Below are positions 1 to 39,815 of a stretch of 40,929 nt of DNA, in pieces. The notes beneath the pieces are model-generated. The model worked only from the letters and a program-made list of their open reading frames with translations. It was not told where the DNA came from and made no database searches. Source of the DNA: Patescibacteria group bacterium (GTDB lineage Bacteria; Patescibacteriota; Minisyncoccia; JAHIHE01; JAGLIN01); contig JAYEKL010000063.1 of assembly GCA_034660995.1 (NCBI GenBank), positions 5,449-46,377 of the forward strand, in the 5' to 3' direction. The number at the start of each line of letters is the position of its first letter. Within the stretch, counting starts at the first letter, position 1. Position numbers and translations under genes: made by a program.

Positions 1-30
1 AACATTGATTCAAATGTTTGTTTTTATGTA

Positions 31-301
31 AGTCACAACTATACTAGAAATAAGAAAGGTTTCGGTGAGATTTAAGTAGTCTACGGATCTCTCCATTTCG
101 TTATCACTCCAGTCGAGATGACAGCTACACATTCCTTCGAGATGACAAGTTTGTTTTATTTTCATTCCAAGTATAGTTGTCATTTCGAATCCCGATAGGG
201 TGAGAAATCTGTAAGCGGATGAAATGTATTTTTTTAAAACAGGTATAGTGTGTTTTCAGATCTCTCCATTTCGTTATCACTCCAGTCGAGATGACAGCTA
301 T
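31..301 (+). repeat. Family-B composite hairpin-repeat cluster, copy B1 (possibly truncated by window start)
   Basis: Two identical units gatctctccatttcgttatcactccagtcgagatgaca (86-123, 259-296) plus an opposed unit tgtcatttcgaatcccgatagggtgagaaatctgtaagcgga (178-219). The same unit order and linker sequence recur at 34353-34686 (same orientation) and 24653-24962 (reverse complement). Confidence 0.85.
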
Positions 302-310
302 CAAAATTTT

Positions 311-1582
311 TTACGTTCCTTCTTGCCAGCTTTCTAGATAATTTTTTTGCGCTTCGGTAAGTTTGTCAATTTTAATATCCATTGATCTAAGTTTTAAATT
401 CGCGACCACATTTTCAATTTCTTCACTAACGTTGTAAACTTTTGGTTCAAGTGTTGCTTTATTTTTAGCTACCCATTCTCCTGCAAGAGCTTGTGTTGCA
501 AAACTCATATCCATAACAGAAGCAGGATGTCCTTCAGCAGCTGAAAGGTTAATAAGTCTTCCTTCAGCTAGAACAAATATTCTTTTTTTTATTCCGTCTT
601 TATTTTTTAGGCTATATTCATCAACGAAGTTTCTGATATTTTTTGTTACATTTTCTGATATTTTTTCAAGACTTTTTAAATTTATTTCACAATCAAAGTG
701 ACCTGAATTGCAAATAGATACTCCATCTTTCATAACTTTAAAATGTTGTTCGTCTATAACATTTATATCGCCTGTAATCGTGCAAAATAAATCTCCTTTT
801 TTAGCAGCTTCAATCATTGGAGAAACTTCGAATCCGTCCATTGCTGCTTCAAGAGCCTTGATTGGATCTATTTCTGTTACAATAACTTTTGCTCCTATTC
901 CTCTTGCTCGGTCTGCAAATCCGCGTCCGCACCAGCCATAGCCGGCGACAACTACATTTTTTCCAGCAATCAACATATCAGTTGCTCTGATTATTCCATC
1001 TAGTGTTGATTGTCCAGTTCCATAACGATTGTCAAACATATTTTTTGTTTTAGCATCGTTAACTGCGACAATTGGAATTTTTAAGGCGCCGTCTTTTTCC
1101 ATTGCTCGAAGACGGATTACGCCAGTTGTTGTTTCTTCCATGCTACCGATAATTTGTTTTATAAGTTCAGGATGTTCTTTATGAACTGTAGAAATTAAAT
1201 CTGCTCCGTCGTCCATCGTTATATTAGGGCTATGAGCTATAACTGCTTTTAAATGTTTATAAAAAGTATTTGTGTCTTCTCCTTTAATGGCAAAAACAGA
1301 AATACCATAATTTTCAACTAAACTTGCCACTACATCATCTTGAGTAGAGAGGGGATTGGAAGCGCATAATGCGACATCTGCTCCTCCTTCTTTTAGGGTT
1401 CTAGCTAAATTTGCAGTTTCTGCAGTCATATGAAGACAAGCTGACATTTTTAGTCCTTCAAATGGTTTTTCTTTTGCAAATCTTTCACGAACTTGAGTTA
1501 AAACAGGCATATCGTTACTTGCCCACTCAATTCTTTTTTTGCCCGCTTGAGCAAGATTTTTATCTTTGATGTCACATTCCAT
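311..1582 (-). CDS. ahcY: Adenosylhomocysteinase (SAH hydrolase)
   Basis: 423-aa ORF. Family hallmarks read directly: N-terminal [26 protein letters not shown]-binding [13 protein letters not shown]-terminal [11 protein letters not shown]. Confidence 0.95.
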
Positions 1583-5900: not shown

Positions 5901-6425
5901 ATGTCAATTACAAAACAAGATAAAGAAAAAATAGTTAAAAATCTTAGTGATAAGTTTTCAAAAGCTAAATCTATTATTTTTTTGGGATTTAAAGGATTAA
6001 CAGTTAAAGAGGATAATGAGTTAAGAAATAAGCTTAGAGGTGAAGATATTGATTATAAGGTTGCCAGAAAAACCTTAATTAAAAGAGGTCTAAAGGATGT
6101 AAATATTGAAGGTGCTGAGGATTTGGAGTTAGAAGGTCCAATTAGTATGGCTGTTTCTTACGATGATGAAGTGGCTCCAGCAAGATTAGCTAATGAATAT
6201 GCTAAAACAAATAAAAAGTTAAAATTGCTTGGAGGATATGTTTCAAATAAATATTTAGATGTGGTGGAAATAAAGGCTTTATCGCTTTTGCAGGGAAAGG
6301 ATCAATTGAGGGCTCAATTAGTAGGAACAATAAATGCTCCTGTGTCTGGTTTTGTAAATGTTCTAGCTGGCAATATTCGTGGATTAGTTAATGTCCTAAA
6401 AGCAATTGAGGATAATAAAAAATAA
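5901..6425 (+). CDS. rplJ: 50S ribosomal protein L10
   Basis: 174 aa with an L10-like pattern (KVARKTLIKRGL, LLGGYV), immediately upstream of rplL as is universal in bacteria. Confidence 0.9.
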   Translation: MSITKQDKEKIVKNLSDKFSKAKSIIFLGFKGLTVKEDNELRNKLRGEDIDYKVARKTLIKRGLKDVNIEGAEDLELEGPISMAVSYDDEVAPARLANEYAKTNKKLKLLGGYVSNKYLDVVEIKALSLLQGKDQLRAQLVGTINAPVSGFVNVLAGNIRGLVNVLKAIEDNKK

Positions 6426-6951: not shown

Positions 6952-6984
6952 AAAAACAAGGGATTAAACCTCCCTTGTTTTTTG
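6952..6984 (+). terminator. Rho-independent terminator after rplL
   Basis: Stem acaaggga/tcccttgt (6956-6963 / 6971-6978), 7-nt loop, followed by a T run. Confidence 0.75.
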
Positions 6985-7143: not shown

Positions 7144-9450
7144 TTAAATCTCAATTTCAACTTCAAAAATTTTATCTCCATTTAATATATAAATCTTTTT
7201 ATTTTTTTCATCTACAATGATGTTTTTTAGATTATCAAACTTATTGCTAATGTATTGTCCTAATAGTTCTCCGCTTATCTTGTTAAAAAGTACGATTCTG
7301 TTTTTGGCTGAATCTGTAATATAAAGATATTCAAATTCTGGTTTGGTGTAAATTTCTGATGAGCTAGAGATTAATTCGCTTGGACTTTCTGTTGAAAATC
7401 CTATTACTTTTCTGCCACGATTAAACTTATCAATTAATCCATTTGAATTTAAAAGATAAATAGATCCGTCAATTGCCATTGATATAACATCTTCAATATT
7501 TTCATTTTCTTTTTCAAACCAGGTTTTTCCTGATGCAAAACTATTTGTTAGTTTTTTGTATTTGTAAATTTGGTTTGAATCTAATAGATATAGAAAATTA
7601 CTATAAGCGCTTAAATCTTTTAGTTTAGATATGTTTTCTGGAAGTTCTATCTCTATAGTTGAAAATGTTTCTTTGCTAATATCAAATATTCCCATTTTGT
7701 TAGAGTCTGTGGCGAATATAATTTCTTTGGTTTTTTCCATTGAAGTTGAAGCACTGCTTAGGTTTGCATTATCTTTAATTTTAATTTTAAAATCGGTTAT
7801 ATCTTTTTTAGTAAAGCTTATTCCGTTTAATGTTCCATTTTTTGAGTCAAATACAAAATACTTTTTGTTATCTTTAAATATTTTTTTAGGATCTTTAATA
7901 TCTTCTATTTGATTAAAATCAATTATTACTATTGGGTCTTCTATTCTGCTTACAAGATCAATTATGTCTAATTGTTTTTGGATTTCTTCTAATAAAACAG
8001 AAGCTTTAGCAGACAGTTGTTTATATCTCTCTTTATCGTCTAGTGAGATATTTCTTGTATTTATTATATTTTTTGCTTCAATCAAAGATTTTCTTGCCTC
8101 TGGTTGATTACTTATTGAATCTATTTCTGCTTTTTCTATTTTGTTTTCAGCTTGAATTAATAAACTAGCATAAGCGCTAAATTTTTCATTTTCACTGTCT
8201 GTATAATTTTTGAATATTAATCCTCCTATAAAGACAAATGCAATAAGTACAAATGTGACTAGTATCAATTTTTTTCTATTAGAGGATACCTTTACTTGTT
8301 GTGGAGATTCATCTTCAGATTTTGATTTTCTGACAAATTTAAAAATTGGAAGTATAATTTTATTTTTTATCAAAACAAAAATTTCTTTCAGCTTTTTTAG
8401 TAAATATTCAATTTTAGTTTCAGATTCTTCATCAAGTGAATCCATAAAATTGTTAGTTCTACTTTTTTCGTTTTGATGTTTTTCTTTAAATAATTCTAAA
8501 TTTTTGTCCACTTCTTTTTTTACTTCTATTTTATCCGATGGTTCTTTTTTTTCATACTTATCTATAATATCTTCAAGACTGAGTTTTTCTTTTTTTGTGG
8601 TTGTTTTTGATGGTTGCAGAATTTCTTTTTCAGTTTTATTAAAATTTGCTGGATCTTCAAGTTTTTCTTGTAGGATTGGAATAGCTTCTTTTTCTTCTCT
8701 TTTCTTCTCGACATTTTTTCTTTGTGGTTTTATTTTAATTTGAGTAAGCTTTTCTTCACTTTCTTTTCCAATTTTCATAAGCAATAAGCCCATTGTTTTA
8801 ATATCACTTTCTTTTTCAATGGAATCTTGAATAGTTTTTGCTAAATCTTCAATGGTCAAGGAGAAGGCTAGCTGTTTTAATTTTTCTATTGGAAATATTT
8901 CGAAAAGTTTAGGAGTGGCAAATAAAACAAGATCACCATCTTCTAATTCTCCATTGGCAATGTTAGTAAATGTTTTAAAAGGATGAGGTTTTTCTTCGTT
9001 GGTTATGTTCTTTCCTATGTCGGTAATTTGTTCATCTCTAATAAGGATAGTTTTGATTTTACCTGTTTGACTTATATGAAGTTCATTATTCATATACGCG
9101 CAGTATGTCATATTCAAATTTCCAATCCAATCTACATTTCCTTGTTCAGCAAGTTTGGAAAGTGTTGAATTTACTTTATGCAAGCTTGATTCCAAGCTTT
9201 CCATAGTTGATTTTCCTAAATTAGAGTTGGAATAAAACTCTTTCTTGGCAATTGAAACAAGAAGATTTATAAGATAGGAAGAATTTTCTGAAAAATCTAC
9301 GATTTCTCCAACGATATATAAATTTCCCAATGATTGCTCTTCAATATTTTCGGGTTCATAAATAAATATATCACAAAAAGATTTTCTTTCTTCACTTGAA
9401 AAAACAATTTCTTTCAAGTCTATTTTTATTTTCTTATTTAAACTTGCCAT
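7144..9450 (-). CDS. Large single-pass membrane protein of unknown function
   Basis: 768-aa uninterrupted ORF. It has a central TM helix (LILVTFVLIAFVFIGGLIF), a Lys/Glu-rich linker and an N-terminal domain of about 230 aa. That domain has a faint PP2C/SpoIIE-like pattern (weak). The C-terminal ~350 aa carries repeated beta-strand-like motifs (IYLLNSNG, LYITDSAKNRIVLF, IYILNGDKIFEV) suggesting a propeller. Confidence 0.6.
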   Translation of the reverse strand: MASLNKKIKIDLKEIVFSSEERKSFCDIFIYEPENIEEQSLGNLYIVGEIVDFSENSSYLINLLVSIAKKEFYSNSNLGKSTMESLESSLHKVNSTLSKLAEQGNVDWIGNLNMTYCAYMNNELHISQTGKIKTILIRDEQITDIGKNITNEEKPHPFKTFTNIANGELEDGDLVLFATPKLFEIFPIEKLKQLAFSLTIEDLAKTIQDSIEKESDIKTMGLLLMKIGKESEEKLTQIKIKPQRKNVEKKREEKEAIPILQEKLEDPANFNKTEKEILQPSKTTTKKEKLSLEDIIDKYEKKEPSDKIEVKKEVDKNLELFKEKHQNEKSRTNNFMDSLDEESETKIEYLLKKLKEIFVLIKNKIILPIFKFVRKSKSEDESPQQVKVSSNRKKLILVTFVLIAFVFIGGLIFKNYTDSENEKFSAYASLLIQAENKIEKAEIDSISNQPEARKSLIEAKNIINTRNISLDDKERYKQLSAKASVLLEEIQKQLDIIDLVSRIEDPIVIIDFNQIEDIKDPKKIFKDNKKYFVFDSKNGTLNGISFTKKDITDFKIKIKDNANLSSASTSMEKTKEIIFATDSNKMGIFDISKETFSTIEIELPENISKLKDLSAYSNFLYLLDSNQIYKYKKLTNSFASGKTWFEKENENIEDVISMAIDGSIYLLNSNGLIDKFNRGRKVIGFSTESPSELISSSSEIYTKPEFEYLYITDSAKNRIVLFNKISGELLGQYISNKFDNLKNIIVDEKNKKIYILNGDKIFEVEIEI

Positions 9451-12112: not shown

Positions 12113-13873
12113 ATGGAGAATGACAATCAAAATAAAATATATATAAGAGAGGATGAAGAAATTCCATCTATTGTAAGCAAAATCAAAAGGTGTTCAGAAA
12201 AAGATGTAGTATTAATAGTGCCTCGTAATGCGTTGATTTTAAATAACGTATTAAATCTTAAGATACTTAAAAAAGAAGCGGAGAGTTTGAGTAAAGAGAT
12301 TTCAATAATAACAGCTGATGATGAGAGTGAGACGGAAGAAGAGAGCATCGGAATAAATTTTGATGTTGCTGGAAATGAAAAAAAGAGTTCTATTGATCCC
12401 ATTGTAGAACCTGATGATCTTTTGAGAAGTAAAAAAGAAGATAAAACTAATTTCAATTCGTTGAATAATAAAAGGAATATTAAGGCAAGTCATAGAGGTA
12501 AGATTAAAATGTTTGATATAGTGAAAAAAGTAAATAATGTAGGGAGAGTTGATAATATGGTTCGTGAGCCTGATATCGAGAAAATGGATGATGAAAAGAT
12601 AAATAATTACCAAGAAGACATTAAAAATAGTAGTGATAACGCTAAATTTCAAGTAAGGGAAGAAATAGTAAATTCTACAAAAAAAACAAAAAAGAAAAAA
12701 ATAACTATTCTCTCATCATTAAACTCAAAAATGGTCGCGCTTTTTATTTTTATAAGTCTTGTTGCTGTTTCATTGGCAATGGCTATTATTCTTCCAAAGG
12801 CAGATGTAGGTATAATTTTAAAAAAGGAAGTCGCTGTATATGACTTTGAATTTATGGCTGATAAGTCTTTGAGCGAAATTGATATTGCTAATAATAAAGT
12901 TCCATTAAAGAAAATAGAAGTTAGTAGTGAAGAATCTGGAAGTTATTCAACTACTGGAATAAAGCATGTACAGGAAAAGGCGAGCGGAGAGATTACAATT
13001 TTCAATGAATATTCTTCAAGTCCATACAGGATAGTTGCAACTACAAGATTTTTGTCGAAAGAAAGCAATAAACTCTTTAGAATTGCAGAAGCTGTTACGA
13101 TTCCTGGGTTTTCAAGAGTAGAAGGAGTGGATGTTCCTGGTCAAGTTACAATAAAAATTTATGCTGATGAAATAGGAGAAGAATATAATATTGGTCCTGA
13201 TTCTTTTCAATTGCCAGGTTTGCAAGGATCAGCTAAATATACATCAGTTTATGCTAGATCAGTTAAAGCGATGTCTGGTGGAATGGACAAGGAAGTTACA
13301 TATTTTTCAGAGAGTGATTATGCAAATGCCGAAGAAGAGCTTGCAAAACTAGTTGAGAAAAAAAATGAGAAAGATTTTTCGGAAAAAGTTTCTGAAAATG
13401 ACTTTTTATTAGAAAATACAAAAAAAGAAGAGAAATTAGATGTTAGCGCTGATGTTAAGGTTGGGGATATTGTTGACAATTTTCAAATAAGCGTTAAGGC
13501 GAAAACAAGTATTTCTCTGATATCAATATCTGATTTAGATAAAATAATAAATGAAAAGATCAATTCAAGATTAGACACTAATAAAGAGCTTTTGGATGAT
13601 AGTAGAAGCTATGAGGTTGGTGACATTATGGTAGGTGAGGATGAAAAAATAATAATGCCAATCCATATTAATCAAGGTTTAATTGTAAAAATTGATATTG
13701 ATAATTTAAAAGAGAATATAGCTGGAAAAAGTGAAGCAGAATTGAATAGCTATTTTAGCAATATGGACGGAGTAAAATCTACAGATATTTGTCTTTGGCC
13801 TTTTTGGGTAAAAAATATTCCTTCGTCATATGAAAAAATCAATATAGCTATTGACATAAATAACCCTGTGTAG
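12113..13873 (+). CDS. Membrane-anchored protein of unknown function (acidic/Lys-rich N-terminus, one TM, large extracytoplasmic domain)
   Basis: 586-aa ORF with TM MVALFIFISLVAVSLAMAIIL. The segment GEITIFNEY...ATTRFLSKESNKLFRI...VTIKIYADEIGEEYNIGP...MSGGMD recalls baseplate-J/gp47-like proteins (memory only, weak). Confidence 0.55.
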   Translation: MENDNQNKIYIREDEEIPSIVSKIKRCSEKDVVLIVPRNALILNNVLNLKILKKEAESLSKEISIITADDESETEEESIGINFDVAGNEKKSSIDPIVEPDDLLRSKKEDKTNFNSLNNKRNIKASHRGKIKMFDIVKKVNNVGRVDNMVREPDIEKMDDEKINNYQEDIKNSSDNAKFQVREEIVNSTKKTKKKKITILSSLNSKMVALFIFISLVAVSLAMAIILPKADVGIILKKEVAVYDFEFMADKSLSEIDIANNKVPLKKIEVSSEESGSYSTTGIKHVQEKASGEITIFNEYSSSPYRIVATTRFLSKESNKLFRIAEAVTIPGFSRVEGVDVPGQVTIKIYADEIGEEYNIGPDSFQLPGLQGSAKYTSVYARSVKAMSGGMDKEVTYFSESDYANAEEELAKLVEKKNEKDFSEKVSENDFLLENTKKEEKLDVSADVKVGDIVDNFQISVKAKTSISLISISDLDKIINEKINSRLDTNKELLDDSRSYEVGDIMVGEDEKIIMPIHINQGLIVKIDIDNLKENIAGKSEAELNSYFSNMDGVKSTDICLWPFWVKNIPSSYEKINIAIDINNPV

Positions 13874-24990: not shown

Positions 24991-25024
24991 AGTCTATTTT
25001 GCAACGGCCGTTGCAAAATAGACT
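24991..25024. repeat. Perfect 34-bp palindrome
   Basis: agtctattttgcaacgg|ccgttgcaaaatagact: 17-bp arms with no spacer and a GC-rich centre (cggccg). Confidence 0.9.
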
Positions 25025-25156: not shown

Positions 25157-26548
25157 ATGACACAAAAAAACGAAGATTTAATGGACAAAATAGTTTCACT
25201 TGCTAAAAGAAGAGGTTTTGTTTTTTCTGGAAGCGAAATTTATGGCGGTTTGGCGAATACTTGGGATTACGGACCTGTCGGGGTTGAATTGAAAAATAAC
25301 ATCAAGCAGGTTTGGTGGAAGTTTTTTGTTAAGAGTAGAGAAGATGTTGTCGGAATAGACGCTGCGATCTTAATGAATAGTCGTGTTTGGAAAACATCTG
25401 GGCATGTGGCTGGATTTAACGATGCTCTTGTTGACTGTCGGGCTTGTAAAGCAAGAATCAGAGTTGATCATTTAATTGAAGACAGTTTGAATATGAAGGC
25501 TGAAGGGATGACCACTGAAGATATGACGAAATTAATAGAAGAAAATGATATTAAGTGTCCAGTTTGTGGAAAAAAAGATTTTACAGATGCCAGAAAATTT
25601 GGTCTTATGTTTAAAACTTATCAGGGAGTGACGGAAGAAGATAAAAATATAATTTATCTTCGTCCTGAAACAGCGCAGGCGATGTTCGTAAATTTTAAAA
25701 ATGTTTTAAATTCTACACACAAAAAAATTCCATTTGGCATAGCGCAAATTGGGAAAGCATTTCGCAATGAAATAACACCTGGAAATTTTATTTTTAGAAC
25801 AGTTGAATTTGAGCAGATGGAACTTGAGTATTTTATTGATGAAAAGAATTGGGAAGAATCGTTTAAATATTGGCAAAAAGAAATGGCAAGTTGGCTTGAT
25901 CATATTGGCATAAAAAAAGAAAATTATTCAATAAGAGAGCATGATAAAGACGAGCTTTCGCATTATAGTAAAAAGACAATTGATTTTGAATACGATTTTC
26001 CATTTGGAACAAAAGAGCTTTATGGACTTGCGTATCGGACTAATTTTGATCTAACAAGTCATCAAAATTCAAGCGGGCAAAATATGGAATATTTTGATAC
26101 AGAAGGTAATAGAAAATATATCCCACATGTTATTGAGCCGACATTCGGAGTTGATAGAACTATTCTCGCGGCAATGGTTGATGCTTATTGCGAGGAAGAA
26201 GTATCAACGGCAAATGAAAAAACAGAGACACGAGTGGTAATGAAATTCAATAAAAATATCGCGCCAGTAAAGGTCGCAATTCTGCCTCTTAGCAAAAAAG
26301 AAAATTTAAGCAAAAAGGCAAAATATATTTTTGATTTACTAAAGACAGAATTCGCCTGCCAATACGACGAATCACAAAGCATTGGCAAGCGCTACCGTCG
26401 ACAAGATGAGATCGGCACGCCGTATTGTGTGACGGTTGATTTTGAGTCGTTAGAAGATGATGCGGTGACGGTGAGAGATAGAGATACGATGGAGCAGGAA
26501 AGGGTGAAAGTTGAGGAATTGGTAGGATGGTTGAAAGATGTTTTTTAG
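25157..26548 (+). CDS. glyQS: Glycine--tRNA ligase (alpha2-type class II)
   Basis: 463 aa with RRGFVFSGSEIYGGLANTWDYGPVGVELKNNIKQVWW, YLRPETAQAMFVNF, GIAQIGKAFRNEITP and EPTFGVDR. The last ~195 nt are visibly more GC-rich than the rest of the gene. Confidence 0.93.
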   Translation: MTQKNEDLMDKIVSLAKRRGFVFSGSEIYGGLANTWDYGPVGVELKNNIKQVWWKFFVKSREDVVGIDAAILMNSRVWKTSGHVAGFNDALVDCRACKARIRVDHLIEDSLNMKAEGMTTEDMTKLIEENDIKCPVCGKKDFTDARKFGLMFKTYQGVTEEDKNIIYLRPETAQAMFVNFKNVLNSTHKKIPFGIAQIGKAFRNEITPGNFIFRTVEFEQMELEYFIDEKNWEESFKYWQKEMASWLDHIGIKKENYSIREHDKDELSHYSKKTIDFEYDFPFGTKELYGLAYRTNFDLTSHQNSSGQNMEYFDTEGNRKYIPHVIEPTFGVDRTILAAMVDAYCEEEVSTANEKTETRVVMKFNKNIAPVKVAILPLSKKENLSKKAKYIFDLLKTEFACQYDESQSIGKRYRRQDEIGTPYCVTVDFESLEDDAVTVRDRDTMEQERVKVEELVGWLKDVF

Positions 26549-32985: not shown

Positions 32986-34032
32986 ATGAATATCCCAGAA
33001 ATGCCAACAAAAATGCCAACAAACGAGATTTTCAACAAAGAGCTTAATGAGCGTGTTGGTATAGGCGAAAGAATAAGTTTAGAATTGAGGGATGTACCTG
33101 AAATAGATTATGAAAACTTTGATTCTATAAAAGATGAGATGATTCAAAAGATTGGAATTGAAAATGAGGAAGATTTTGTGTTGCTTGAATCAATGATGGG
33201 ATTGAGACTGAATATAAGTAGAAATATTGAAAGAGTTAAGATGATTAATGGCAATAATAAAGATAAAGATATTTTTAGGAACTATGCGATAGAAGATGCG
33301 GAGTGGATGGATTTAATTGCAGAACATATTACATCTATTAACAACGATTCAAGTTTAAAGAAAAAAGAGAAACTGGATAAAATTCACTTATTTTGGAAAG
33401 ATTTAGAAAGAGCGTATAAGGATTTTGAAATATATTATAAGGATTTTACTGCCTCGTTAAAAGAAGATAATCTTGATTTTGATTGCAAAAAAAATGGAAT
33501 ATTGGGTCAAGTGGCAGCTGAAGATCTGGTGAATGGTATAAACGAAATTTCTGAAGAACTAAATATAAAAGAAATTAGCATAAGATCGTCAACTTCTAAA
33601 GAAGATGTTGATGAAAAAATTGATTTTTATGTTAGCATTGAATATCTTAATGGTTTAACCAATACAATGCCATGTCAGGTTAAAGCGCATAAAAATACGT
33701 CTTATACTGGAAGATTTATACTTGATAATCTGATAACCAAGGTTACAAAGATATCTAATGACGAGTTGAAATTATCGCGCGATATAAAAGTTCCCTCTGC
33801 TGCCGAAGAGCAAATAATTAAGGATTTAGAAATATTTAAGGAGAGGGCTTTAACAGAACATAAAGAAGGTTTATTTATTATAATTCCATATGGAAAGGCG
33901 GTTTATAGAAAAACAAAGAGAAAGGTGGAAGAAGTAGATCTGTTAGGGGAAAATGGTCAAGCTCACGAACGTTTAAAAGAAGCGTTTGTGTCACAATTAA
34001 AAGAAAGAAAGGTTTTAGATCTTAAGATTTAG
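32986..34032 (+). CDS. Hypothetical acidic protein
   Basis: 348-aa uninterrupted ORF with no motif I can recognise. Confidence 0.55.
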   Translation: MNIPEMPTKMPTNEIFNKELNERVGIGERISLELRDVPEIDYENFDSIKDEMIQKIGIENEEDFVLLESMMGLRLNISRNIERVKMINGNNKDKDIFRNYAIEDAEWMDLIAEHITSINNDSSLKKKEKLDKIHLFWKDLERAYKDFEIYYKDFTASLKEDNLDFDCKKNGILGQVAAEDLVNGINEISEELNIKEISIRSSTSKEDVDEKIDFYVSIEYLNGLTNTMPCQVKAHKNTSYTGRFILDNLITKVTKISNDELKLSRDIKVPSAAEEQIIKDLEIFKERALTEHKEGLFIIIPYGKAVYRKTKRKVEEVDLLGENGQAHERLKEAFVSQLKERKVLDLKI

Positions 34033-34067
34033 CGCGCAAGTTTTAAATTTAAGACAGTGTGAAAATA

Positions 34068-34095
34068 TTGACAAGATTGGCTAGTGTGATAAAAT
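34068..34095 (+). promoter_or_regulatory. Near-consensus extended -10 promoter
   Basis: TTGACA (34068-34073), 16-nt spacer containing TG, then TGaTAAAAT (34087-34095). GGAGGTG (34114-34120) follows, 3 nt before ATG 34124. Confidence 0.6.
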
Positions 34096-34123
34096 ATTAA
34101 TCTCAACCAAAGTGGAGGTGAAA

Positions 34124-34306
34124 ATGAAAAAAAATGATGATGTACTAGAGCTTAATTGTTCGCAAGCGTTAGAAATTATTGAAGAAATCGGTGAAGGGCG
34201 TGTTGTAATGCATCCTTTAAGTTTTAGTGCGTTGAACAACCATATAAGTGGCTGTTCAGAATGCGCCAAAAGATTAATCGAAGCCACAAAAAAACAGAGA
34301 GAATAA
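34124..34306 (+). CDS. Small zf-HC2-like (anti-sigma-factor-type zinc finger) protein
   Basis: 60 aa. LNCSQALEIIEE...HISGCSECAKRL fits the C...H-x3-C-x2-C anti-sigma zinc-finger pattern. It has a strong SD and its own promoter and terminator. There is no TM segment and no sigma factor gene nearby. Confidence 0.55.
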   Translation: MKKNDDVLELNCSQALEIIEEIGEGRVVMHPLSFSALNNHISGCSECAKRLIEATKKQRE

Positions 34307-34325
34307 CTCTCTGTCTTATTTTTAT
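34294..34325 (+). terminator. Rho-independent terminator
   Basis: Stem acagagag/ctctctgt (34294-34301 / 34307-34314) with the stop codon in the loop, followed by T-rich sequence. Confidence 0.65.
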
Positions 34326-34352
34326 CTGTTTAGGATAACAGTTATATGTGGT

Positions 34353-34686
34353 TGTCATTTCGAACGGAGAGAGAAATCTATAAACTATACTATGCCAGAA
34401 ACGAGGAAGGTTTAAGTGAAACTTGTTTAATTCATAGATCTCTCCATTTCGCTATCGCTCCAGTCGAGATGACAAGTTTGTTTTATTCTTATTCCAAACA
34501 TAGTTGTCATTTCGAATCCCGATAGGGTGAGAAATCTGTAAGCGGATAAAATGGTTTGTTAGGAATAAATTAACTTGAAAACAGAGGTATAGTGTGCTTA
34601 CAGATCTCTCCATTCCGCTATCGCTTCAGTCGAGATGACATCTACGCGTTCCTTCAAGATACGCTATCACTCCAGTTGAGATGACA
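34353..34686 (+). repeat. Family-B composite hairpin-repeat cluster, copy B3
   Basis: Units present, in order: tgtcatttcgaacggagagagaaatct; agatctctccatttcgctatcgctccagtcgagatgaca; tgtcatttcgaatcccgatagggtgagaaatctgtaagcgga; cagatctctccattccgctatcgcttcagtcgagatgaca; plus a partial unit. It ends 32 nt from the leuS stop. Confidence 0.85.
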
Positions 34687-34717
34687 TCTACGCACTCCTA
34701 ACTTCTAACCTTCTAAT

Positions 34718-37700
34718 TCAAACTACCACATTAATTAATCTTCCTTTTACGAATATAATTTTTTTAATTTCTTTTTCCTCAATCCATTTTTTTAATTTTT
34801 CACTTTCAAGAGCGATTTTTTTTGCTTCCTTCTCTGAAATATCTGCTGGGACTTTAATTTGGTCGCGGAGTTTTCCGTTGACTTGAATTACGAGCTGAAT
34901 TTCACTATTTTTGGTAAGCTCAGGATCAAATTCTGGCCAAGATTGCAGATGAATACTTTCTTTTTCTCCAGATAATTTCCATAGTTCTTCTGTAATATGC
35001 GGAGCAAAGGGGGAGAGGAGAATTAAAAATATTGGATATTGGATATTGGATATTGTTTTTTGTTTTTCCATTCCATTTGCAAGAATCATCAATGAACTAA
35101 TTGCTGTGTTGAATTTTAAATTTTCTATATCTTCAGTAACTTTTTTTATTGTTTGATGTAATAATTGTTCTATATTTTTATCTTGTAGGGGCGCAAGATT
35201 TTGCGCTCTCTCATTGTTTGTAGCAACAAGTAGGGACGCAAAATTTTGCGTTCTCGTTTTATCGGGGAACACAAGATTTTGTGTTCCTACTTTGCTTTGC
35301 ATTCCCCAAACTCTTTCTAGAAATCTGTTCATTCCAATTAAACTATGTGTGTTCCATGGAATTGCATCGCCATATGGACCCATAAACATCTCATAGAGTC
35401 TAATTGTGTCTGCTCCATATTCTTTGATAACTTCATCGGGATTTACGACGTTACCGCGCGATTTGCTCATTTTTTGTCCATCTTCGGAAAGTATCATTCC
35501 ATGCGATCTCCTTTTTATGTATGGCTCAGCGGTATTCACATATTTTAGATCAAATAAAAACTTGTGCCAAAAACGAGAATAAAGAAGATGCAAAGTTGTA
35601 TGTTCCATTCCGCCGTTATATAGATCAATAGGCATCCAGTGTTTTAATTTTTTAGACGAAGCAAATTCTTTATTATTTTTAGAATCTATATATCGCAAAA
35701 AATACCAGCTTGATCCAGCCCAATTTGGCATTGTATCAGTTTCTCTTTTTGCGCTATTACCACATTTTGGACATTTCACATTTACCCATTTATCAATTTT
35801 TGCAAGAGGGGATTCACCCGTATCCGTCGGTTCGTAATTTTTTACTTCTGGTAATTCAAGCGGCAAGTCTTTTTTAGATAATGAGATATTTTCAGTTATA
35901 TTTATTTTTTCAAATTCCCAGCCAACAAGTCCGTTTTTTTGAATTCTATCAACGTAATCTTTTGTAAAACTGTAAGTTTTTTTCAAGTCATCTAATTTAT
36001 TTATTTTGATTTCCGGAATAATATTTTTTATTAAATCTTTTTTTTCAAACAGCTCTTCCAGATTTTTGAAATTATAAACTGTCTTTATTTTTACAATTTC
36101 AAAATCATCCGTGTTTTTATTATTTATCTTTATCAGATCACCAATTTTTATGTCTCCGAAATATCTTTCTTTTTCTTCAGGATTTAAAGCTCTGGTTTCT
36201 ACGGTTTTTCTGTCTGCGATGATTTGATTCCAAACATTATCATCTCTAAAATTAAGCTCCATCTTAATTTTAAATCTCCTTGAACCACATTCTTTACACT
36301 TCACAATCGGAATCGGTTCGCCCCAATAATGCTGTCTCGAAAAAACCCAATCTCTTAATTTATAATTTACCGCCTTTTTGCCGAGTTTATTTTTTTCCAG
36401 CCATTCGGTTATTTCTTTTTTAAATTCAGCTGTTGTAAGTCCATTAAATTGTTCTGAATTTATGGCAATTCCGTCTTCTGATAAAAATTTTTCCCCATTT
36501 TGAAAAATATCCCAATGAATTTCTAATTCCGACAAATTTATAAAATCCTTTACCTTTTCTTTTTCTAGCCAAATGCCATTATGGTTTTTTACCTCCTCTT
36601 TTTTTGGTTCTATAAAACTGTTGTCTAATAATTCTATGTAAATACAATTTCTTTTCAAATCGCAACGATTAACATCTTTATGCGCCGCAAAAAAACGACT
36701 GTAAATTGTATTTCCAATTCTTTTAACAACACGCATATTTTGATAACCGGATTCTTCTTTTGCTTCTCTAAGAGCTGCTTCTTCAGCACTTTCTCCTTTT
36801 TCAATGCCACCGACTACAAAAGTTTTCCAATCATTTTTACTTTTACTCCAGTCTAAGCAAAAATATTCATCTTTTTCCCAGTGTTTAATAATTACATCCA
36901 CAACTTCTCTTTTTGTATTTTTTTTGTCTTTCCTGATTTTATTTTTACCCTCACCAATAAATAATGGCGCTATAACTTGTCTTATCTCCAACCCAAATTT
37001 TTTCGCAAACTCAAAATCCCTTTCATCATGCGCCGGCACCGCCATAATCGCGCCCGTGCCATAAGAAGCCAAAACATAATCCGCGATCCAAATTGGAATT
37101 TCTTCGTTATTAATCGGATTTATCGCTTTAATCCCTTTCAATTCAACCCCCGTTTTTTCTTTTGCCAAATCAGTCCTGTCTAAATCAGATTTTTGCTTAG
37201 CTTTTTCAATATATTTTTTCACTTCTTCCAAATTCAAAATTCTAGATTCCAAATTCTTTATCAAATTATGTTCAGGAGACAAAACCATATAAGTACATCC
37301 AAATAAAGTATCGGGTCTGGTGGTGAAAACTTCAATAAATTTTGAATTTTGAATTTGTAATTTTGAATTTATTTGTAATTTGGAATTTGTAATTTGGAAT
37401 TTAATAGTCGCTCCTTCCGATTTACCAATCCAGTTAATCTGCTGTGTTTTAATTTTATCTAAATAGTCAACTGTTTCTAGGTCTTTAATCAATCTGTTTG
37501 CGTATTTTGTTATTCTAAGCATCCATTGTTTCATAGTCTTCTTTTCTGTTGGCGCGCCGCATCTTTCGCAAGCATCATTGACAACTTCTTCGTTTGCTAA
37601 TCCTATTTTACAGTCGGGACACCAATTGATTGACATTTCCGCTTCATAAGCCATTCTTTGATTATCAATGTATTCTTTTTTCTCATTGTCGTTTAAATCT

Positions 37701-38194
37701 TTTGGAATTTTCAATTCTTCAATTGGACATGCTTTGTCTAATTTTTCATCATAAAAACTGTTAAACAATTTTAAAAAGATCCATTGTGTCCATTTATAAT
37801 ATTGTGGATCAGTTGTATTGATTTCACGCGACCAATCAAAACTAGGACCATAGCTTTTGATTTGACGAGTGAAGTTTTTAATATTATTTTTTGTTACGAT
37901 TTTTGGATGAGTTTTTGTTTTAATCGCAAAATTTTCTGTTGGCAAGCCAAAAGCGTCCCAGCCGATTGGGTACATAACATTATGTCCGTCCATCCTTTTT
38001 TTTCGCGCGACAATATCAATCGCAATATGACTTCTCAAATGTCCAACATGAAGCCCAGCTCCAGATGGATAGGGAAACTCAATTAAACAATAAAACTTTT
38101 TCTTTTTAGAAAAATCTTCCGCTTTATAAATGTTACTCTTGTCCCATTCTTTTTGCCATTTTCCTTCAATTTTTTGAGGGTTATATTTTTGCAT
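34718..38194 (-). CDS. leuS: Leucine--tRNA ligase with two large in-frame domain insertions and three repeat-derived insertions
   Basis: 1158 aa. Canonical landmarks in order: PYPSGAGLHVGH, WCPDCKIGLANEEV..CERCG, TTRPDTLFGCTYMVLSPEH, AVPAHDERDFEFAKKFGL, YKLRDWVFSRQHYWGEPIPI, RETDTMPNWAGSSWYFLRY, KMSKSRGN. Confidence 0.95.
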   Translation of the reverse strand: MQKYNPQKIEGKWQKEWDKSNIYKAEDFSKKKKFYCLIEFPYPSGAGLHVGHLRSHIAIDIVARKKRMDGHNVMYPIGWDAFGLPTENFAIKTKTHPKIVTKNNIKNFTRQIKSYGPSFDWSREINTTDPQYYKWTQWIFLKLFNSFYDEKLDKACPIEELKIPKDLNDNEKKEYIDNQRMAYEAEMSINWCPDCKIGLANEEVVNDACERCGAPTEKKTMKQWMLRITKYANRLIKDLETVDYLDKIKTQQINWIGKSEGATIKFQITNSKLQINSKLQIQNSKFIEVFTTRPDTLFGCTYMVLSPEHNLIKNLESRILNLEEVKKYIEKAKQKSDLDRTDLAKEKTGVELKGIKAINPINNEEIPIWIADYVLASYGTGAIMAVPAHDERDFEFAKKFGLEIRQVIAPLFIGEGKNKIRKDKKNTKREVVDVIIKHWEKDEYFCLDWSKSKNDWKTFVVGGIEKGESAEEAALREAKEESGYQNMRVVKRIGNTIYSRFFAAHKDVNRCDLKRNCIYIELLDNSFIEPKKEEVKNHNGIWLEKEKVKDFINLSELEIHWDIFQNGEKFLSEDGIAINSEQFNGLTTAEFKKEITEWLEKNKLGKKAVNYKLRDWVFSRQHYWGEPIPIVKCKECGSRRFKIKMELNFRDDNVWNQIIADRKTVETRALNPEEKERYFGDIKIGDLIKINNKNTDDFEIVKIKTVYNFKNLEELFEKKDLIKNIIPEIKINKLDDLKKTYSFTKDYVDRIQKNGLVGWEFEKINITENISLSKKDLPLELPEVKNYEPTDTGESPLAKIDKWVNVKCPKCGNSAKRETDTMPNWAGSSWYFLRYIDSKNNKEFASSKKLKHWMPIDLYNGGMEHTTLHLLYSRFWHKFLFDLKYVNTAEPYIKRRSHGMILSEDGQKMSKSRGNVVNPDEVIKEYGADTIRLYEMFMGPYGDAIPWNTHSLIGMNRFLERVWGMQSKVGTQNLVFPDKTRTQNFASLLVATNNERAQNLAPLQDKNIEQLLHQTIKKVTEDIENLKFNTAISSLMILANGMEKQKTISNIQYPIFLILLSPFAPHITEELWKLSGEKESIHLQSWPEFDPELTKNSEIQLVIQVNGKLRDQIKVPADISEKEAKKIALESEKLKKWIEEKEIKKIIFVKGRLINVVV
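35039..35065 (-). repeat. In-frame 7-nt tandem repeat (atattgg x about 3.9) inside leuS
   Basis: Plus strand atattggatattggatattggatattg. It encodes ISNIQYPI within the C-terminal anticodon-binding region. Confidence 0.85.
35183..35293 (-). repeat. Three in-frame palindromic units inside leuS
   Basis: gcgcaagattttgcgc (35191-35206), acgcaaaattttgcgt (35236-35251, perfect) and ggaacacaagattttgtgttcc (35266-35287). Centres are 45 and 33 nt apart. They translate as RAQNLAP / RTQNFAS / GTQNLVF. Confidence 0.85.
35870..36283 (-). other. ASCH/PUA-like module of about 138 aa inserted between the two halves of a LeuRS zinc knuckle
   Basis: Residues ~638-775 lie between KCKECG and KCPKCG. The pattern WNQIIADRKTVETRAL...IKIGDLIKI...FEIVKIKTV...LVGWEFEKI resembles ASCH domains such as E. 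coli YqfB (ILAGRKTITIRD...FKTGDVLRV...YVIEFKCL, recalled from memory). Confidence 0.5.
36494..36952 (-). other. Nudix hydrolase module of about 155 aa inserted after the LeuRS editing domain
   Basis: Residues ~415-567. The Nudix box GGIEKGESAEEAALREAKEESGY fits G-x5-E-x7-R-E-U-x-E-E-x-G-U exactly. Confidence 0.8.
37339..37401 (-). repeat. In-frame 7-nt-period repeat tract inside leuS
   Basis: Plus strand attttga attttga atttgta attttga ... atttgga atttgta atttgga. It encodes QITNSKLQINSKLQIQNSKF just before the editing-domain entry IEVFTTRPDT. Confidence 0.8.
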
Positions 38195-38217: not shown

Positions 38218-38976
38218 CTATCTAATGTTTTCTATATCTTTATACCTGGTTATTTTATCTAAAATTTTATCTTTAGTTTTATTTATTTTTTTAAATGGAA
38301 GATCAATATCATTTTTTATTATTGCCAAATCAAAATAATATCGTAAAGTGCCCAAAACTCCCACCTTTTCCAGTTTACGAGAAGATGTAATTACTTTTTT
38401 TTCTGGTAAATATTTAACTTTGCCTAATAAATTAATGTCTTTGCTCAGCTGAACATCTTCCAGCATACTGTCTTTAAAGCCTCCGACTTTTTCAAATTTG
38501 TCTTTTAAAATGCAAGTATTAAATCCAGGAAGGGTCGCGCAATCAAGCTGAGAACGCATTAACAAATAACTGTTAGTTATCTCTTCGGCGAAAATAAGAT
38601 TCGGTGACTGTCTAGAAAATTTAAAACTCGTTGAAAGTCCTACGAGATGTGGAATTTTTCTAAATTTTCTAAAAATAAATTCAATATAGTCTGGTAAAAT
38701 TTTAGTATCGGCATCAATAAAAACTAATATTTTTCCTTTGGCGATCAAAGTGCCGGTATTTCTTGCGCAGGAGGGAGTTCTTTTTTTCGAAATGATTATT
38801 TTATCAGCGTATTTTTTGGCAATTTCAATTGTTTTATCACTGCTTTTACAATCAGAAACGATTATCTCATAATTCAAACCTGTTTTTTGGTTTTTAATTG
38901 ATTTTAAAGTTGTCTCAACATATTTTTCTTCGTTATATGTTGGAACAATAACTGAAATATCTGTTTTTATTCTCAT
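38218..38976 (-). CDS. Family-2 glycosyltransferase
   Basis: 252 aa with VIVPTYNEEKY and DADT (DxD) motifs of the GT-A fold GT2. Confidence 0.88.
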   Translation of the reverse strand: MRIKTDISVIVPTYNEEKYVETTLKSIKNQKTGLNYEIIVSDCKSSDKTIEIAKKYADKIIISKKRTPSCARNTGTLIAKGKILVFIDADTKILPDYIEFIFRKFRKIPHLVGLSTSFKFSRQSPNLIFAEEITNSYLLMRSQLDCATLPGFNTCILKDKFEKVGGFKDSMLEDVQLSKDINLLGKVKYLPEKKVITSSRKLEKVGVLGTLRYYFDLAIIKNDIDLPFKKINKTKDKILDKITRYKDIENIR

Positions 38977-39011: not shown

Positions 39012-39815
39012 TTAAAGAGAATCTTTTATTTTTTGCAGATTAAATAATCTAATTGCGTTCTCACTTGTCGCTTTCTCAATTTCCTCAAAATTTGTATTTC
39101 TAATATGCGCGATCTTTTCGGCAACATATTTAACAAGAAGCGGTTCGTTTCTTTCTCCTCTGTCGGGAACTGGCGCAAGATACGGACAATCTGTTTCAAT
39201 AAGGATTTTATTAAGTGGCATATTTTCTATGACACGATATATCTCTGGTTTGTTTCCTAGTTTAGATTTATCCTTGTAATAAGTGATAATTCCTGTAAAA
39301 CCGACATAAAATCCAAGCTCTAAAAATTTTTCCGCAATTTTTTGGCTAGCTGTAAAACAATGAATAACGCCACGCCAATTATCTGTTTGATAGCTTTTTA
39401 AAATATCTATCAGGTCGTTATAGGCATCTCGGCAGTGAATAATAAGTGGCATATTGTGATTATCAGCTAATTCAAGTTGTGATCTAAACGCTTCTATTTG
39501 TTTTTTTTGTGGTGATAAATTTCTAAAATAATCAAGACCAATTTCTCCGACAGCAATAACTTTGTAATGTTGAACCAAATCTTCTAGTTTTTTTAAGCTA
39601 TTTTTATCAACCGAATCTGCGTCGTGCGGATGAATACCTGCGGAAGCGAAAATATTTTCATTGTCATTGGCAAGCTTACAGCTTCTGATACTTGATTTTA
39701 AATCACATCCAACATTGATCATTTTTTCTCCACCAGCCTTAAAAAACCGTTTTATAACTTCTTTACGGTCATCATCAAATTCTTTAAAGTCTATATGAAC
39801 ATGGCTATCTATCAT
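39012..39815 (-). CDS. tatD: TatD-family metal-dependent hydrolase/DNase
   Basis: 267 aa with IDSHVHID, GEIGLDY, IIHCR and ETDCPYL. It lies downstream of metG, as in many bacteria. Confidence 0.9.
   Translation of the reverse strand: MIDSHVHIDFKEFDDDRKEVIKRFFKAGGEKMINVGCDLKSSIRSCKLANDNENIFASAGIHPHDADSVDKNSLKKLEDLVQHYKVIAVGEIGLDYFRNLSPQKKQIEAFRSQLELADNHNMPLIIHCRDAYNDLIDILKSYQTDNWRGVIHCFTASQKIAEKFLELGFYVGFTGIITYYKDKSKLGNKPEIYRVIENMPLNKILIETDCPYLAPVPDRGERNEPLLVKYVAEKIAHIRNTNFEEIEKATSENAIRLFNLQKIKDSL

Follow-up and report, generated by a model that had tools for sequence, protein, structure and literature searches.

Bacterial leucyl-tRNA synthetases (LeuRS), as typified by the enzymes from Thermus thermophilus (1h3n, 2byt) and Escherichia coli (4aq7), display a collinear core with HIGH and KMSKS motifs, the zinc sites ZN1 and ZN2, the CP1 domain, and anticodon-binding and C-terminal domains. 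CP1 itself has been categorized as an insertion-only module of synthetases in a 2026 survey of domain insertions (PMC13114784), and the NCBIfam family NF040702 (isoleucine--tRNA ligase, N-acetyltransferase domain-containing) likewise represents a class Ia synthetase with an extra enzyme domain. Nudix hydrolases, on the other hand, are known as small free-standing proteins of about 140-160 residues (e.g. RppH, 6vck/4s2x, and those from Aquifex, 3i7u, lupin, 1f3y, Enterococcus faecalis, 2azw, and Bacillus thuringiensis, 3smd), which share a single fold and a box with all the metal-binding glutamates. Here we describe the leuS gene of a Patescibacteria group bacterium (assembly GCA_034660995.1), which lies in a stretch of 40,929 nucleotides of contig JAYEKL010000063.1 (positions 5,449 to 46,377; hereinafter the window, numbered from its first letter). 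It possesses all the above-listed features of canonical LeuRS, and residues 410-567 of its product constitute a complete Nudix protein, with the same fold and box as the small hydrolases, belonging to a distinct subfamily that is also found as free-standing genes. An earlier note, made from the DNA alone, knew of no described LeuRS with such an architecture; in agreement with this, full-text literature searches retrieved no account of LeuRS bearing Nudix, ASCH or HAM1 modules.

A Nudix domain nested within the CP1 editing domain of LeuRS

The leuS product recovers the equivalog profile TIGR00396 (leuS_bact) with 944.5 bits (cut-off 548.4), and a phmmer search aligns it with T. thermophilus LeuRS 1h3n (E = 3e-194) in five collinear blocks (Table 1). 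The 1158-residue minus-strand frame and the order of landmarks given in the earlier note were upheld, these being HVGH, a CPDC/CERC zinc site, TTRPDT (291-296), AVPAHDERDFEFA (385-397), the segment 611-630 and KMSKS. Both zinc sites, the threonine-rich editing motif TTRPDT and the editing aspartate motif AVPAHDERD are retained. In the alignment residue 409 corresponds to position 363 of the T. thermophilus enzyme and residue 568 to position 374, such that about 158 residues take the place of a connector of about 10 residues (given in the earlier note as roughly 20 residues in the E. coli enzyme). In relatives an insertion of about 148-150 residues is observed at the same alignment column. The Nudix module had been delimited in the earlier note as 36494-36952, an interval that indeed translates in frame and without a stop to residues 415-567; the module is real but its boundaries have to be extended to residues 410-567 (36494-36967), where the borders read QVIAP/LFIGEG and DIFQNG/EKFLSE. 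Its placement between the exit from the editing domain and the re-entry segment did not survive the analysis. When residues 410-567 were deleted in silico, the editing-domain profile PF13603, which matches the whole protein with 203.8 bits, ran unbroken over 13-185 of its 185 positions (195.7 bits). As this match becomes contiguous once the segment is removed, the Nudix module does not follow the CP1 editing domain but interrupts it. The module is thus doubly nested, being set in frame into a solvent loop of CP1, which is itself a domain within the Rossmann fold.

The Nudix module makes up only half of the excess of about 300 residues that the earlier note had pointed out in this LeuRS. The remainder is contributed by an insertion of 131-135 residues at 638-772 and a 34-residue segment at 146-179, neither of which had been noticed. 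The latter segment is absent from the T. thermophilus enzyme and from many Patescibacteria LeuRS. In the alignment to 1h3n the leucine-specific domain of the T. thermophilus enzyme, in the region of positions 593-636, is absent from the window LeuRS.

Profile searches with Pfam NUDIX (PF00293), a check proposed in the earlier note, recovered the module well above the cut-off, with a higher score for the excised segment than for the whole protein (Table 1). Its box, GGIEKGESAEEAALREAKEESGY, was described in that note as letter-perfect: this holds for every fixed letter of GX5EX7REUXEEXGU, i.e. the invariant G/E/R/E/E/E/G, but the two U positions are occupied by Ala and Tyr rather than by Ile, Leu or Val. 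In an alignment of 33 module sequences from diverse LeuRS the box glycines, the glutamate of the RE dyad and both glutamates of the EE dyad are invariant, while the box arginine and the glutamate of the Gx5E segment are at least 90% conserved. These catalytic residues form the most conserved columns of the module, and the box is kept in the large majority of relatives. An AlphaFold2 model built from 33 homologous inserts attained a pLDDT (predicted local distance difference test) of 95.1 and a pTM (predicted TM-score) of 0.87. Foldseek searches initiated with this predicted structure recovered 494 Nudix chains from the PDB at E <= 1e-3, with all of the best matches being Nudix proteins. In light of the model and the box, the module probably folds on its own and is predicted to be an active Mg2+-dependent pyrophosphohydrolase.

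Purifying selection maintains the Nudix module, acting on it as strongly as on the LeuRS core. In comparisons with five relatives bearing the same type of module, the ratio of nonsynonymous to synonymous substitution (dN/dS, Nei-Gojobori) is 0.06-0.13 for the module and 0.08-0.11 for the core, these ratios being rough as dS is near 1; the corresponding proportions of nonsynonymous differences (pN) are 0.046-0.092 and 0.098-0.131. The G+C content of the module (0.30) is close to that of leuS (0.32) and of the window (0.31), giving no indication of foreign composition. An assembly chimera or a frameshifted fusion can practically be dismissed, as dozens of assemblies produced independently of one another (NCBI, JGI, ENA, Logan) have the module in this very loop; the unbroken frame, the uniform G+C content and the selection on the module further rule out a chimera. 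An intein or intron was likewise rejected: the borders lack an N-terminal Cys/Ser/Thr and a C-terminal His-Asn followed by Cys/Ser/Thr, the fold is that of Nudix and not Hint, the frame is continuous and selection operates at the protein level. No flanking repeats or hairpins beyond A+T-rich chance matches were found at the borders of the Nudix module or of the second insert discussed below, and a 22-nt 'repeat' (D4) merely represents the two CxxC knuckles of ZN2.

Exchangeable modules in LeuRS and their free-standing relatives

The survey of Patescibacteria LeuRS suggested in the earlier note established that the nested Nudix module is not a one-off, with the same family occupying the same loop in about 60% of related LeuRS. 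This family-wide pattern had been overlooked in the note, as had the ASCH module and the HAM1 deletion scar considered below. The module is present at this loop in 73 of the 120 closest database homologues and in about 48 of 80 GTDB species-representative loci, which were gathered with the whole LeuRS protein as query. Nearly all of the Nudix-bearing loci are labelled Patescibacteria, Paceibacteria, Parcubacteria, Moranbacteria or Nomurabacteria, the labels being those of the metagenome-assembled genome records, and all of them either bear such names or resemble Patescibacteria. A search of 1.84 billion representative proteins with the module profile recovered 155 matches at E <= 1e-30, and about 105 of the 149 newly listed best matches contain LeuRS segments; overall, hundreds of LeuRS in the databases carry the module. 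Searches of phage, plasmid and IMG/VR sequences recovered no relatives of it. The only GTDB representative with the same Nudix and ASCH architecture as the window (L001, CAYPQL010000002.1) contains an in-frame TAA at 6243-6245, in the position of a Glu codon and 8 codons ahead of the Nudix insert, which could be a sequencing error or the mark of a pseudogene or a split LeuRS.

Alignment against minimal LeuRS relatives of 837 residues revealed four insertion hot spots that are filled combinatorially. Hot spot A, before CP1, accommodates Nudix, HAM1, PDDEXK_3 and DUF559 modules; hot spot B, which is the CP1 loop used in the window, accommodates Nudix, Ser_hydrolase and nucleotidyltransferase modules; hot spot C, in the ZN2 module, accommodates ASCH and alpha/beta-hydrolase modules; and hot spot D, before the anticodon-binding domain, accommodates HAM1/RdgB. 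The LeuRS of one relative, P0054, with four modules, reaches 1524 residues. PD-(D/E)XK (PDDEXK_3) and DUF559/Vsr-like nuclease, nucleotidyltransferase, Ser_hydrolase and HAM1 modules at alternative hot spots were encountered in P0039, P0040, P0054, P0056 and P0058. Some single LeuRS contain two or three diverged copies of the Nudix family that are 21-46% identical to each other, as might be expected of a battery of specificities.

Several observations suggest that the Nudix modules have been swapped between lineages and that module and host histories are decoupled, an inference drawn from pairwise identities rather than from tree tests. Over 2628 pairs of Nudix-bearing LeuRS, the identities of core and module are hardly correlated (Spearman 0.08). 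The window LeuRS and that of P0001 are 80% identical in the core and 44% in the module, while P0011 and P0091 are 63% identical in the core and 73% in the module; the module of the window is closer to those of LeuRS of only about 60-64% core identity. Even in the clade sharing 76% or more core identity with the window, LeuRS are found with no module, with Nudix, ASCH, Nudix+HAM1, ASCH+HAM1, Nudix+ASCH+HAM1 or hydrolase+ASCH+HAM1, the window itself combining Nudix and ASCH with a HAM1 scar. An 887-residue, module-free LeuRS (P0022, locus L010, JAYEHC010000055.1) is 99% identical to that of the window over residues 1-145 and 79-87% elsewhere, a pattern that suggests recent recombination between leuS alleles. 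The use of exchangeable modules by Patescibacteria LeuRS as a family is apparently both widespread and undescribed, and it is in this family-level behaviour, more than in the single gene of the window, that the interest lies.

The second insert of the window LeuRS was identified as an ASCH (PUA-like) module. Its AlphaFold2 model (pLDDT 91.9) matched PH0355 (2z0t, E = 1.7e-8), E. coli YqfB (9kyf, 1.4e-5) and 3s9x (1.6e-3) in Foldseek searches, along with 1s04, 1xne and 1t62, the matched ASCH proteins including PF0455, PF0470, EF3133 and the Lactobacillus crispatus ASCH domain; a sequence profile of the insert also recovered 2z0t and 1xne. With these proteins and TthASCH it shares the beta-barrel PUA-like fold and the K-x-x-E-x-R motif: the octapeptide GxKxxExR appears as DRKTVETR (661-668), with Lys, Glu and Arg kept. 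It differs from them in the replacement of the motif Gly by Asp, in an extra helical segment, in being nested in ZN2 of LeuRS, and in that a Pfam search with residues 638-772 gave no match at E <= 10, and hence none to PF04266. That profile does recognize some free-standing ASCH relatives (116-135 residues) and one related LeuRS (P0055). Of 121 close homologues, 31 have an ASCH module in this position, and the module tracks the LeuRS core, with identities of 64-76%. ASCH proteins deacetylate N4-acetylcytidine (ac4C; PMC6972931, bioRxiv 10.64898/2026.02.27.708502), and a 2026 preprint reports that they strip ac4C from tRNA and that the Lys and Glu of the GKER-type motif are essential in TthASCH (bioRxiv 10.64898/2026.02.27.708502). 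In three loci (L097-L099, 3253-5357) a free-standing ASCH relative directly follows a GNAT acetyltransferase gene, with a Nudix gene nearby; the ASCH and GNAT proteins could constitute an acetylation/deacetylation pair.

At hot spot D the window LeuRS preserves the deletion scar of a third module. HAM1 (PF01725) modules are present in LeuRS of relatives, and the window contains at the equivalent site three tandem G+C-rich palindromes with six strand-matches against 0 expected by chance; leuS has no perfect hairpins outside this group. The peptide LLVATNN (35213-35233), encoded between palindromes two and three, is identical to the start of the HAM1 cassette in relatives (in L006, '...TRAQNLASLLVATNNQGKLKEL...'); the lineage of the window therefore once carried HAM1 and has since lost it by deletion. 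The cassette of L005 has at either end the same perfect 20-nt palindrome, AGACGCGATTTATCGCGTCT, translated as ETRFIAS in both copies, and insertion-free alleles (L010, L013) have a single palindrome copy at the empty site. The palindromes, of the types AGACGCGATTTATCGCGTCT and GGAACACAAAATCTTGTGTTCC, are the only DNA-level clue to the gain and loss of cassettes, and it does not apply to the borders of the Nudix and ASCH modules of the window.

About 30 representatives of the Nudix family are complete free-standing proteins of 154-207 residues with the same box. Their end-to-end alignment with the window insert takes in both the N-terminal extension and the C-terminal Trp helix, which indicates that a whole gene was inserted; their nearest relatives are usually LeuRS-embedded copies. 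Gene contexts were sampled for eight of them. One ends 2 nt before a leuS that itself bears the module (P0148), another 3 nt before an insert-free leuS (P0161). A third (P0178, L094) belongs to a cluster of the order metG-x-tatD-NUDIX-...-yfbR-like-...-Nudix-leuS, where the yfbR-like gene encodes an HD protein and leuS is insert-free; this mirrors the metG-tatD-GT2-leuS order of the window, with the Nudix gene coming after tatD. P0204 lies between argS and an ileS with a His_Phos_1 insert, adjoining tmk, dut and another Nudix gene. In L089 (5094-8498) an isoleucyl-tRNA synthetase with His_Phos_1 nested in its catalytic domain was observed beside a free-standing Nudix gene of the family, argS, dut and tmk. 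P0166 comes downstream of fpg, from which 4 nt separate it, and has ruvA, polA and a gene for a SpoU methylase in its vicinity; P0261 is near udg and another Nudix gene; and P0197 adjoins another Nudix gene. In the 80 GTDB loci no free-standing family member was found within 5 kb of leuS, there being only weak generic Nudix matches downstream in six of them; the adjacency to leuS is therefore real but not common in the clade of the window. The same family is also nested in a class II prolyl-tRNA synthetase (ProRS), between the anticodon-binding and C-terminal domains (P0226), and four further clusters (P0270-P0273) share this architecture. The closest insert-free relatives of these ProRS (70-80% identical) are annotated as Nanoarchaeota or Woesearchaeota, and the neighbouring genes in loci L095 and L096 are compatible with archaea, if not decisive. 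The hosts are probably DPANN archaea.

Potential functions of the nested Nudix enzyme

Judged from these sequence and contextual data, there is about an even chance that the Nudix module rides on LeuRS as a passenger, an enzyme that sanitises nucleotides autonomously while tethered to the synthetase. Such an enzyme would take no part in leucine activation, transfer or editing, and might cleanse the nucleotide pool by hydrolysing non-canonical or by-product nucleoside polyphosphates, while LeuRS would act as its tether and expression scaffold, keeping it in a one-to-one ratio with an essential, constitutively made protein. Patescibacteria are not known to make nucleotides de novo and depend on salvage, for which reason sanitising activities would be valuable to them. 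The arrangement would be suited to organisms in which nucleotides are salvaged and regulators are scarce. Both companions of the Nudix module, the ASCH domain (N4-acetylcytidine amidohydrolase type) and the deleted HAM1 (ITP/XTP pyrophosphatase type), would fit the same theme; since both are nucleotide or nucleoside sanitisers, their co-insertion points to general house-cleaning at least as strongly as to a role coupled to aminoacyl-tRNA synthetases (aaRS). Free-standing members are likewise found in contexts with the repair and sanitation genes fpg, udg, dut, tmk, yfbR and tatD. Other observations weigh against this proposal. The family occurs overwhelmingly in or beside aaRS genes (LeuRS, one ProRS clade, upstream of leuS, argS/ileS), and among the best 150 representatives there is no nesting in non-aaRS hosts, a bias that a pure passenger model does not explain. 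Further, the nearest folds and the sub-threshold NCBIfam matches are RppH and Ap4A (diadenosine tetraphosphate) hydrolases rather than MutT-type NTPases, with the MutT structures 4v14 and 3a6s appearing only mid-list in Foldseek; a MutT-like 8-oxo-(d)GTPase has indirect support in the free-standing member located 4 nt from fpg. Finally, in one subclade the box has undergone Gx5E to Q and RE to ME changes, and its chemistry may be altered or lost.

The aaRS bias would be accounted for by the main rival, a mechanistic link through by-products as envisaged in the earlier note, with the Nudix module destroying Ap4A/Ap3A-type dinucleotides, derived from aminoacyl-adenylate and ATP, where they are made; this would explain why its hosts and neighbours are so often aaRS genes. 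The lupin (1f3y) and Aquifex (3i7u) Ap4A hydrolases are indeed among the best sequence and fold matches, and the copies 2-3 nt upstream of leuS (once insert-free), between argS and ileS and in the metG...leuS cluster, together with the nesting in class II ProRS, lend such a tie some support. Nevertheless, we regard it as rather doubtful. The Ap4A hydrolases match the module profile (1f3y, E = 2.1e-7; 3i7u, E = 7.4e-7, TM-score 0.68-0.75) no better than RppH, CTP pyrophosphatase or MutT-like proteins do, and profile and fold matches from the PDB are all around E = 1e-7 across the RppH, Ap4A, CTP, MutT, ADPR and DIPP subfamilies, so that homology does not separate a sanitising from an Ap4A-directed role. 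Moreover, several free-standing members have DNA-repair or dNTP genes but no aaRS gene around them, no connection of the co-inserted HAM1 and ASCH modules with adenylate chemistry is known, and an aminoacyl-adenylate, which the earlier note had listed as a potential substrate, is an acyl-phosphate and not a diphosphate of the type cleaved by Nudix enzymes. LeuRS is also not known to be among the strongest producers of Ap4A, which counts against this possibility. An RNA-directed enzyme, namely an RppH-like 5'-triphosphate pyrophosphohydrolase or a NAD/Np4N-decapping one that acts on LeuRS-bound tRNA or serves as the general RppH of the cell, appears unlikely. In its favour E. coli RppH (6vck, 4s2x) provides the top Foldseek matches (E ~1e-7), RppH equivalogs are the only NCBIfam Nudix families recovered, the decapping Nudix proteins AvrM14 and Dcp2 are among the profile matches, and the family of the co-resident ASCH module is reported to act on tRNA (bioRxiv 10.64898/2026.02.27.708502). 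Yet the best of these equivalog matches falls far below its threshold (PRK00714; NF001936, 26.7 bits versus a cut-off of 118), the RppH structures show TM-scores of only about 0.6 at 18% identity, mature tRNA bears a 5' monophosphate, and the contexts of the free-standing members contain no RNases.

The remaining alternatives question whether catalysis or cellular benefit is involved at all. That the Nudix fold is non-catalytic, and kept in LeuRS for nucleotide sensing, regulation, structural support or tRNA binding, would be in line with the degenerate box of some relatives (the above-mentioned Gx5E to Q and RE to ME changes and a one-residue deletion), and purifying selection alone is no proof of catalysis; but given that all catalytic box residues are present in the window and in most relatives, that no columns of the module are more conserved than these and that free-standing members share the box, we consider this very improbable. 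We rank still lower the possibility of a mobile in-frame cassette, whether selfish or neutral and similar in spirit to an intein, that spreads between leuS alleles through tolerant loops to no benefit of the cell. Such a cassette might account for the decoupling of module phylogeny from that of the host, the occurrence of all presence/absence combinations inside one narrow clade, the several sites and multiple copies of the Nudix family, the HAM1 cassette between identical palindromes with a single copy at empty sites, and the nuclease-like modules (PDDEXK_3, DUF559) at another hot spot in relatives. It is at odds with the low dN/dS and the conserved catalytic residues, which imply selection on the encoded enzyme, as well as with the lack of intein junction residues, of repeats or hairpins at the Nudix borders, and of phage, plasmid or IMG/VR relatives; in any case, mobility and usefulness are not mutually exclusive. 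A more far-reaching reading, itself rather unlikely, may tentatively be put forward. The aaRS of ultra-small symbionts (LeuRS in Patescibacteria, ProRS in DPANN) might serve as docking platforms for exchangeable in-frame plug-in enzymes (Nudix, ASCH, HAM1, alpha/beta-hydrolase and nuclease-like), which would alternate between a nested state and an existence as separate genes next to those of aaRS, pass from lineage to lineage and perhaps even cross domains of life, and use palindromic sites at one or more hot spots. The modules would then be more than passengers and act on substrates delivered by the synthetase, with Nudix attacking by-products of the Ap4A type and ASCH directed at ac4C or further marks on bound tRNA, making LeuRS a multi-enzyme hub for tRNA and nucleotide quality control.

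Genomic setting and comparison with known systems

The leuS gene is the last of a same-strand run in which leuS, the glycosyltransferase-2 (GT2) gene and tatD are separated by 23 and 35 nt (Table 1); metG-tatD-GT2-leuS is a probable operon. The 685 bp downstream of leuS (34033-34717) contain only short open reading frames (<= 68 aa), a strong promoter-like site on the plus strand (34068-34095) and a terminator-like hairpin (34294-34314). No Rfam match was found in this segment, and over the whole window Rfam recovered only a tRNA-Tyr. Elsewhere in the window there are two intergenic perfect palindromes, one with a 16-bp stem (24991-25024) upstream of a class II aaRS gene (25157-26548) and one with a 12-bp stem (6952-6982). 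Three large open reading frames have no Pfam match at E <= 1e-3, namely 7144-9450 (minus strand, 768 aa), 12113-13873 (plus, 586 aa) and 32986-34032 (plus, 348 aa).

Table 1. Features of the leuS product and of the genes upstream of it (coordinates in the window; Tth, T. thermophilus LeuRS 1h3n)
Feature	Residues	Coordinates	Strand	Basis or remark
leuS, host protein	1158 aa	34718..38194	-	Reading frame open over 1158 codons
Alignment block 1	1-145			Tth 1-145
HIGH motif (HVGH)	49-52	38039..38050	-	
Clade-specific 34-residue segment	146-179	37658..37759	-	Gap between blocks 1 and 2 versus 1h3n
Alignment block 2	180-409			Tth 147-363
CP1 editing domain, N-terminal part	254-409	36968..37435	-	Contains TTRPDT and AVPAHDERD; PF13603 positions 2-143 matched by residues 254-411
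Nudix module	410-567	36494..36967	-	Nested in CP1 editing-domain loop; gap versus Tth 363/374
Pfam NUDIX (PF00293) match	452-548	36551..36841	-	39.6 bits in whole protein, 43.6 bits in excised segment, cut-off 21.1
Nudix box	462-484	36743..36811	-	Metal-binding REx2EE; read from sequence
Alignment block 3	568-637			Tth 374-443
CP1 editing domain, C-terminal part	568-610	36365..36493	-	PF13603 contiguous after in silico removal of insert
ASCH (PUA-like) module	638-772	35879..36283	-	After first CxxC of ZN2, between its two CxxC knuckles
Alignment block 4	773-916			Tth 448-592
KMSKS motif	908-912	35459..35473	-	
Alignment block 5	908-1158			Tth 637-876
Site D scar	~969-1002	35189..35287	-	Three tandem G+C-rich palindromes in coding sequence
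Glycosyltransferase-2 gene		38218-38976	-	Pfam
tatD		39012-39815	-	Pfam
metG, 3' part		40090 to window end	-	Pfam

These observations have several implications. LeuRS is among the best-studied enzymes and a drug target at its editing site; that CP1 can hold a whole foreign enzyme illustrates the plasticity of this scaffold, and as other loops of LeuRS accept up to three more modules, the hot spots offer ready permissive positions for protein engineering. The architectures suggest that Patescibacteria, and apparently DPANN, keep sanitising activities expressed with almost no regulation by welding them to an essential protein. The swapping of modules, the free copies upstream of leuS, and the palindrome-flanked HAM1 cassette and its scar together suggest an as yet undescribed mechanism by which domains are gained and lost in frame. 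On a practical note, pipelines have named insert-bearing LeuRS 'class I tRNA ligase family protein', 'RdgB/HAM1 family non-canonical purine NTP pyrophosphatase' or 'leucyl-tRNA synthetase/ASC-1-like (ASCH) protein', and such misnaming can make leuS seem absent from these genomes.

In comparison with the small Nudix hydrolases listed at the outset, the window module is only 15-21% identical, falls below every NCBIfam cut-off and is nested rather than free-standing. Its family is further distinguished by features of its own, namely an L-x-W motif before the box, an HK-x-NR motif about 20 residues after it, and an H...W signature near the C terminus. Relative to canonical bacterial LeuRS, the window protein has gained the Nudix module of about 158 residues between T. 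thermophilus positions 363 and 374, about 135 residues of ASCH after the first CxxC of ZN2 and the 34-residue segment, lacks the leucine-specific domain, and bears the palindrome/HAM1 scar before the anticodon-binding domain. The presence of an enzyme domain in or on a class Ia synthetase is reminiscent of CP1 and NF040702, and synthetases are known to be preferred hosts of insertions. However, while CP1 is a fidelity domain and NF040702 a single fixed fusion, the Patescibacteria LeuRS accommodate unrelated hydrolases at four sites, combinatorially and with exchange, and these hydrolases also occur as free neighbours. In their in-frame, patchy occurrence at conserved sites of essential proteins the modules also recall inteins; unlike inteins, the Nudix module possesses no splice residues, and it is a housekeeping enzyme under purifying selection that is presumably kept in the mature protein.

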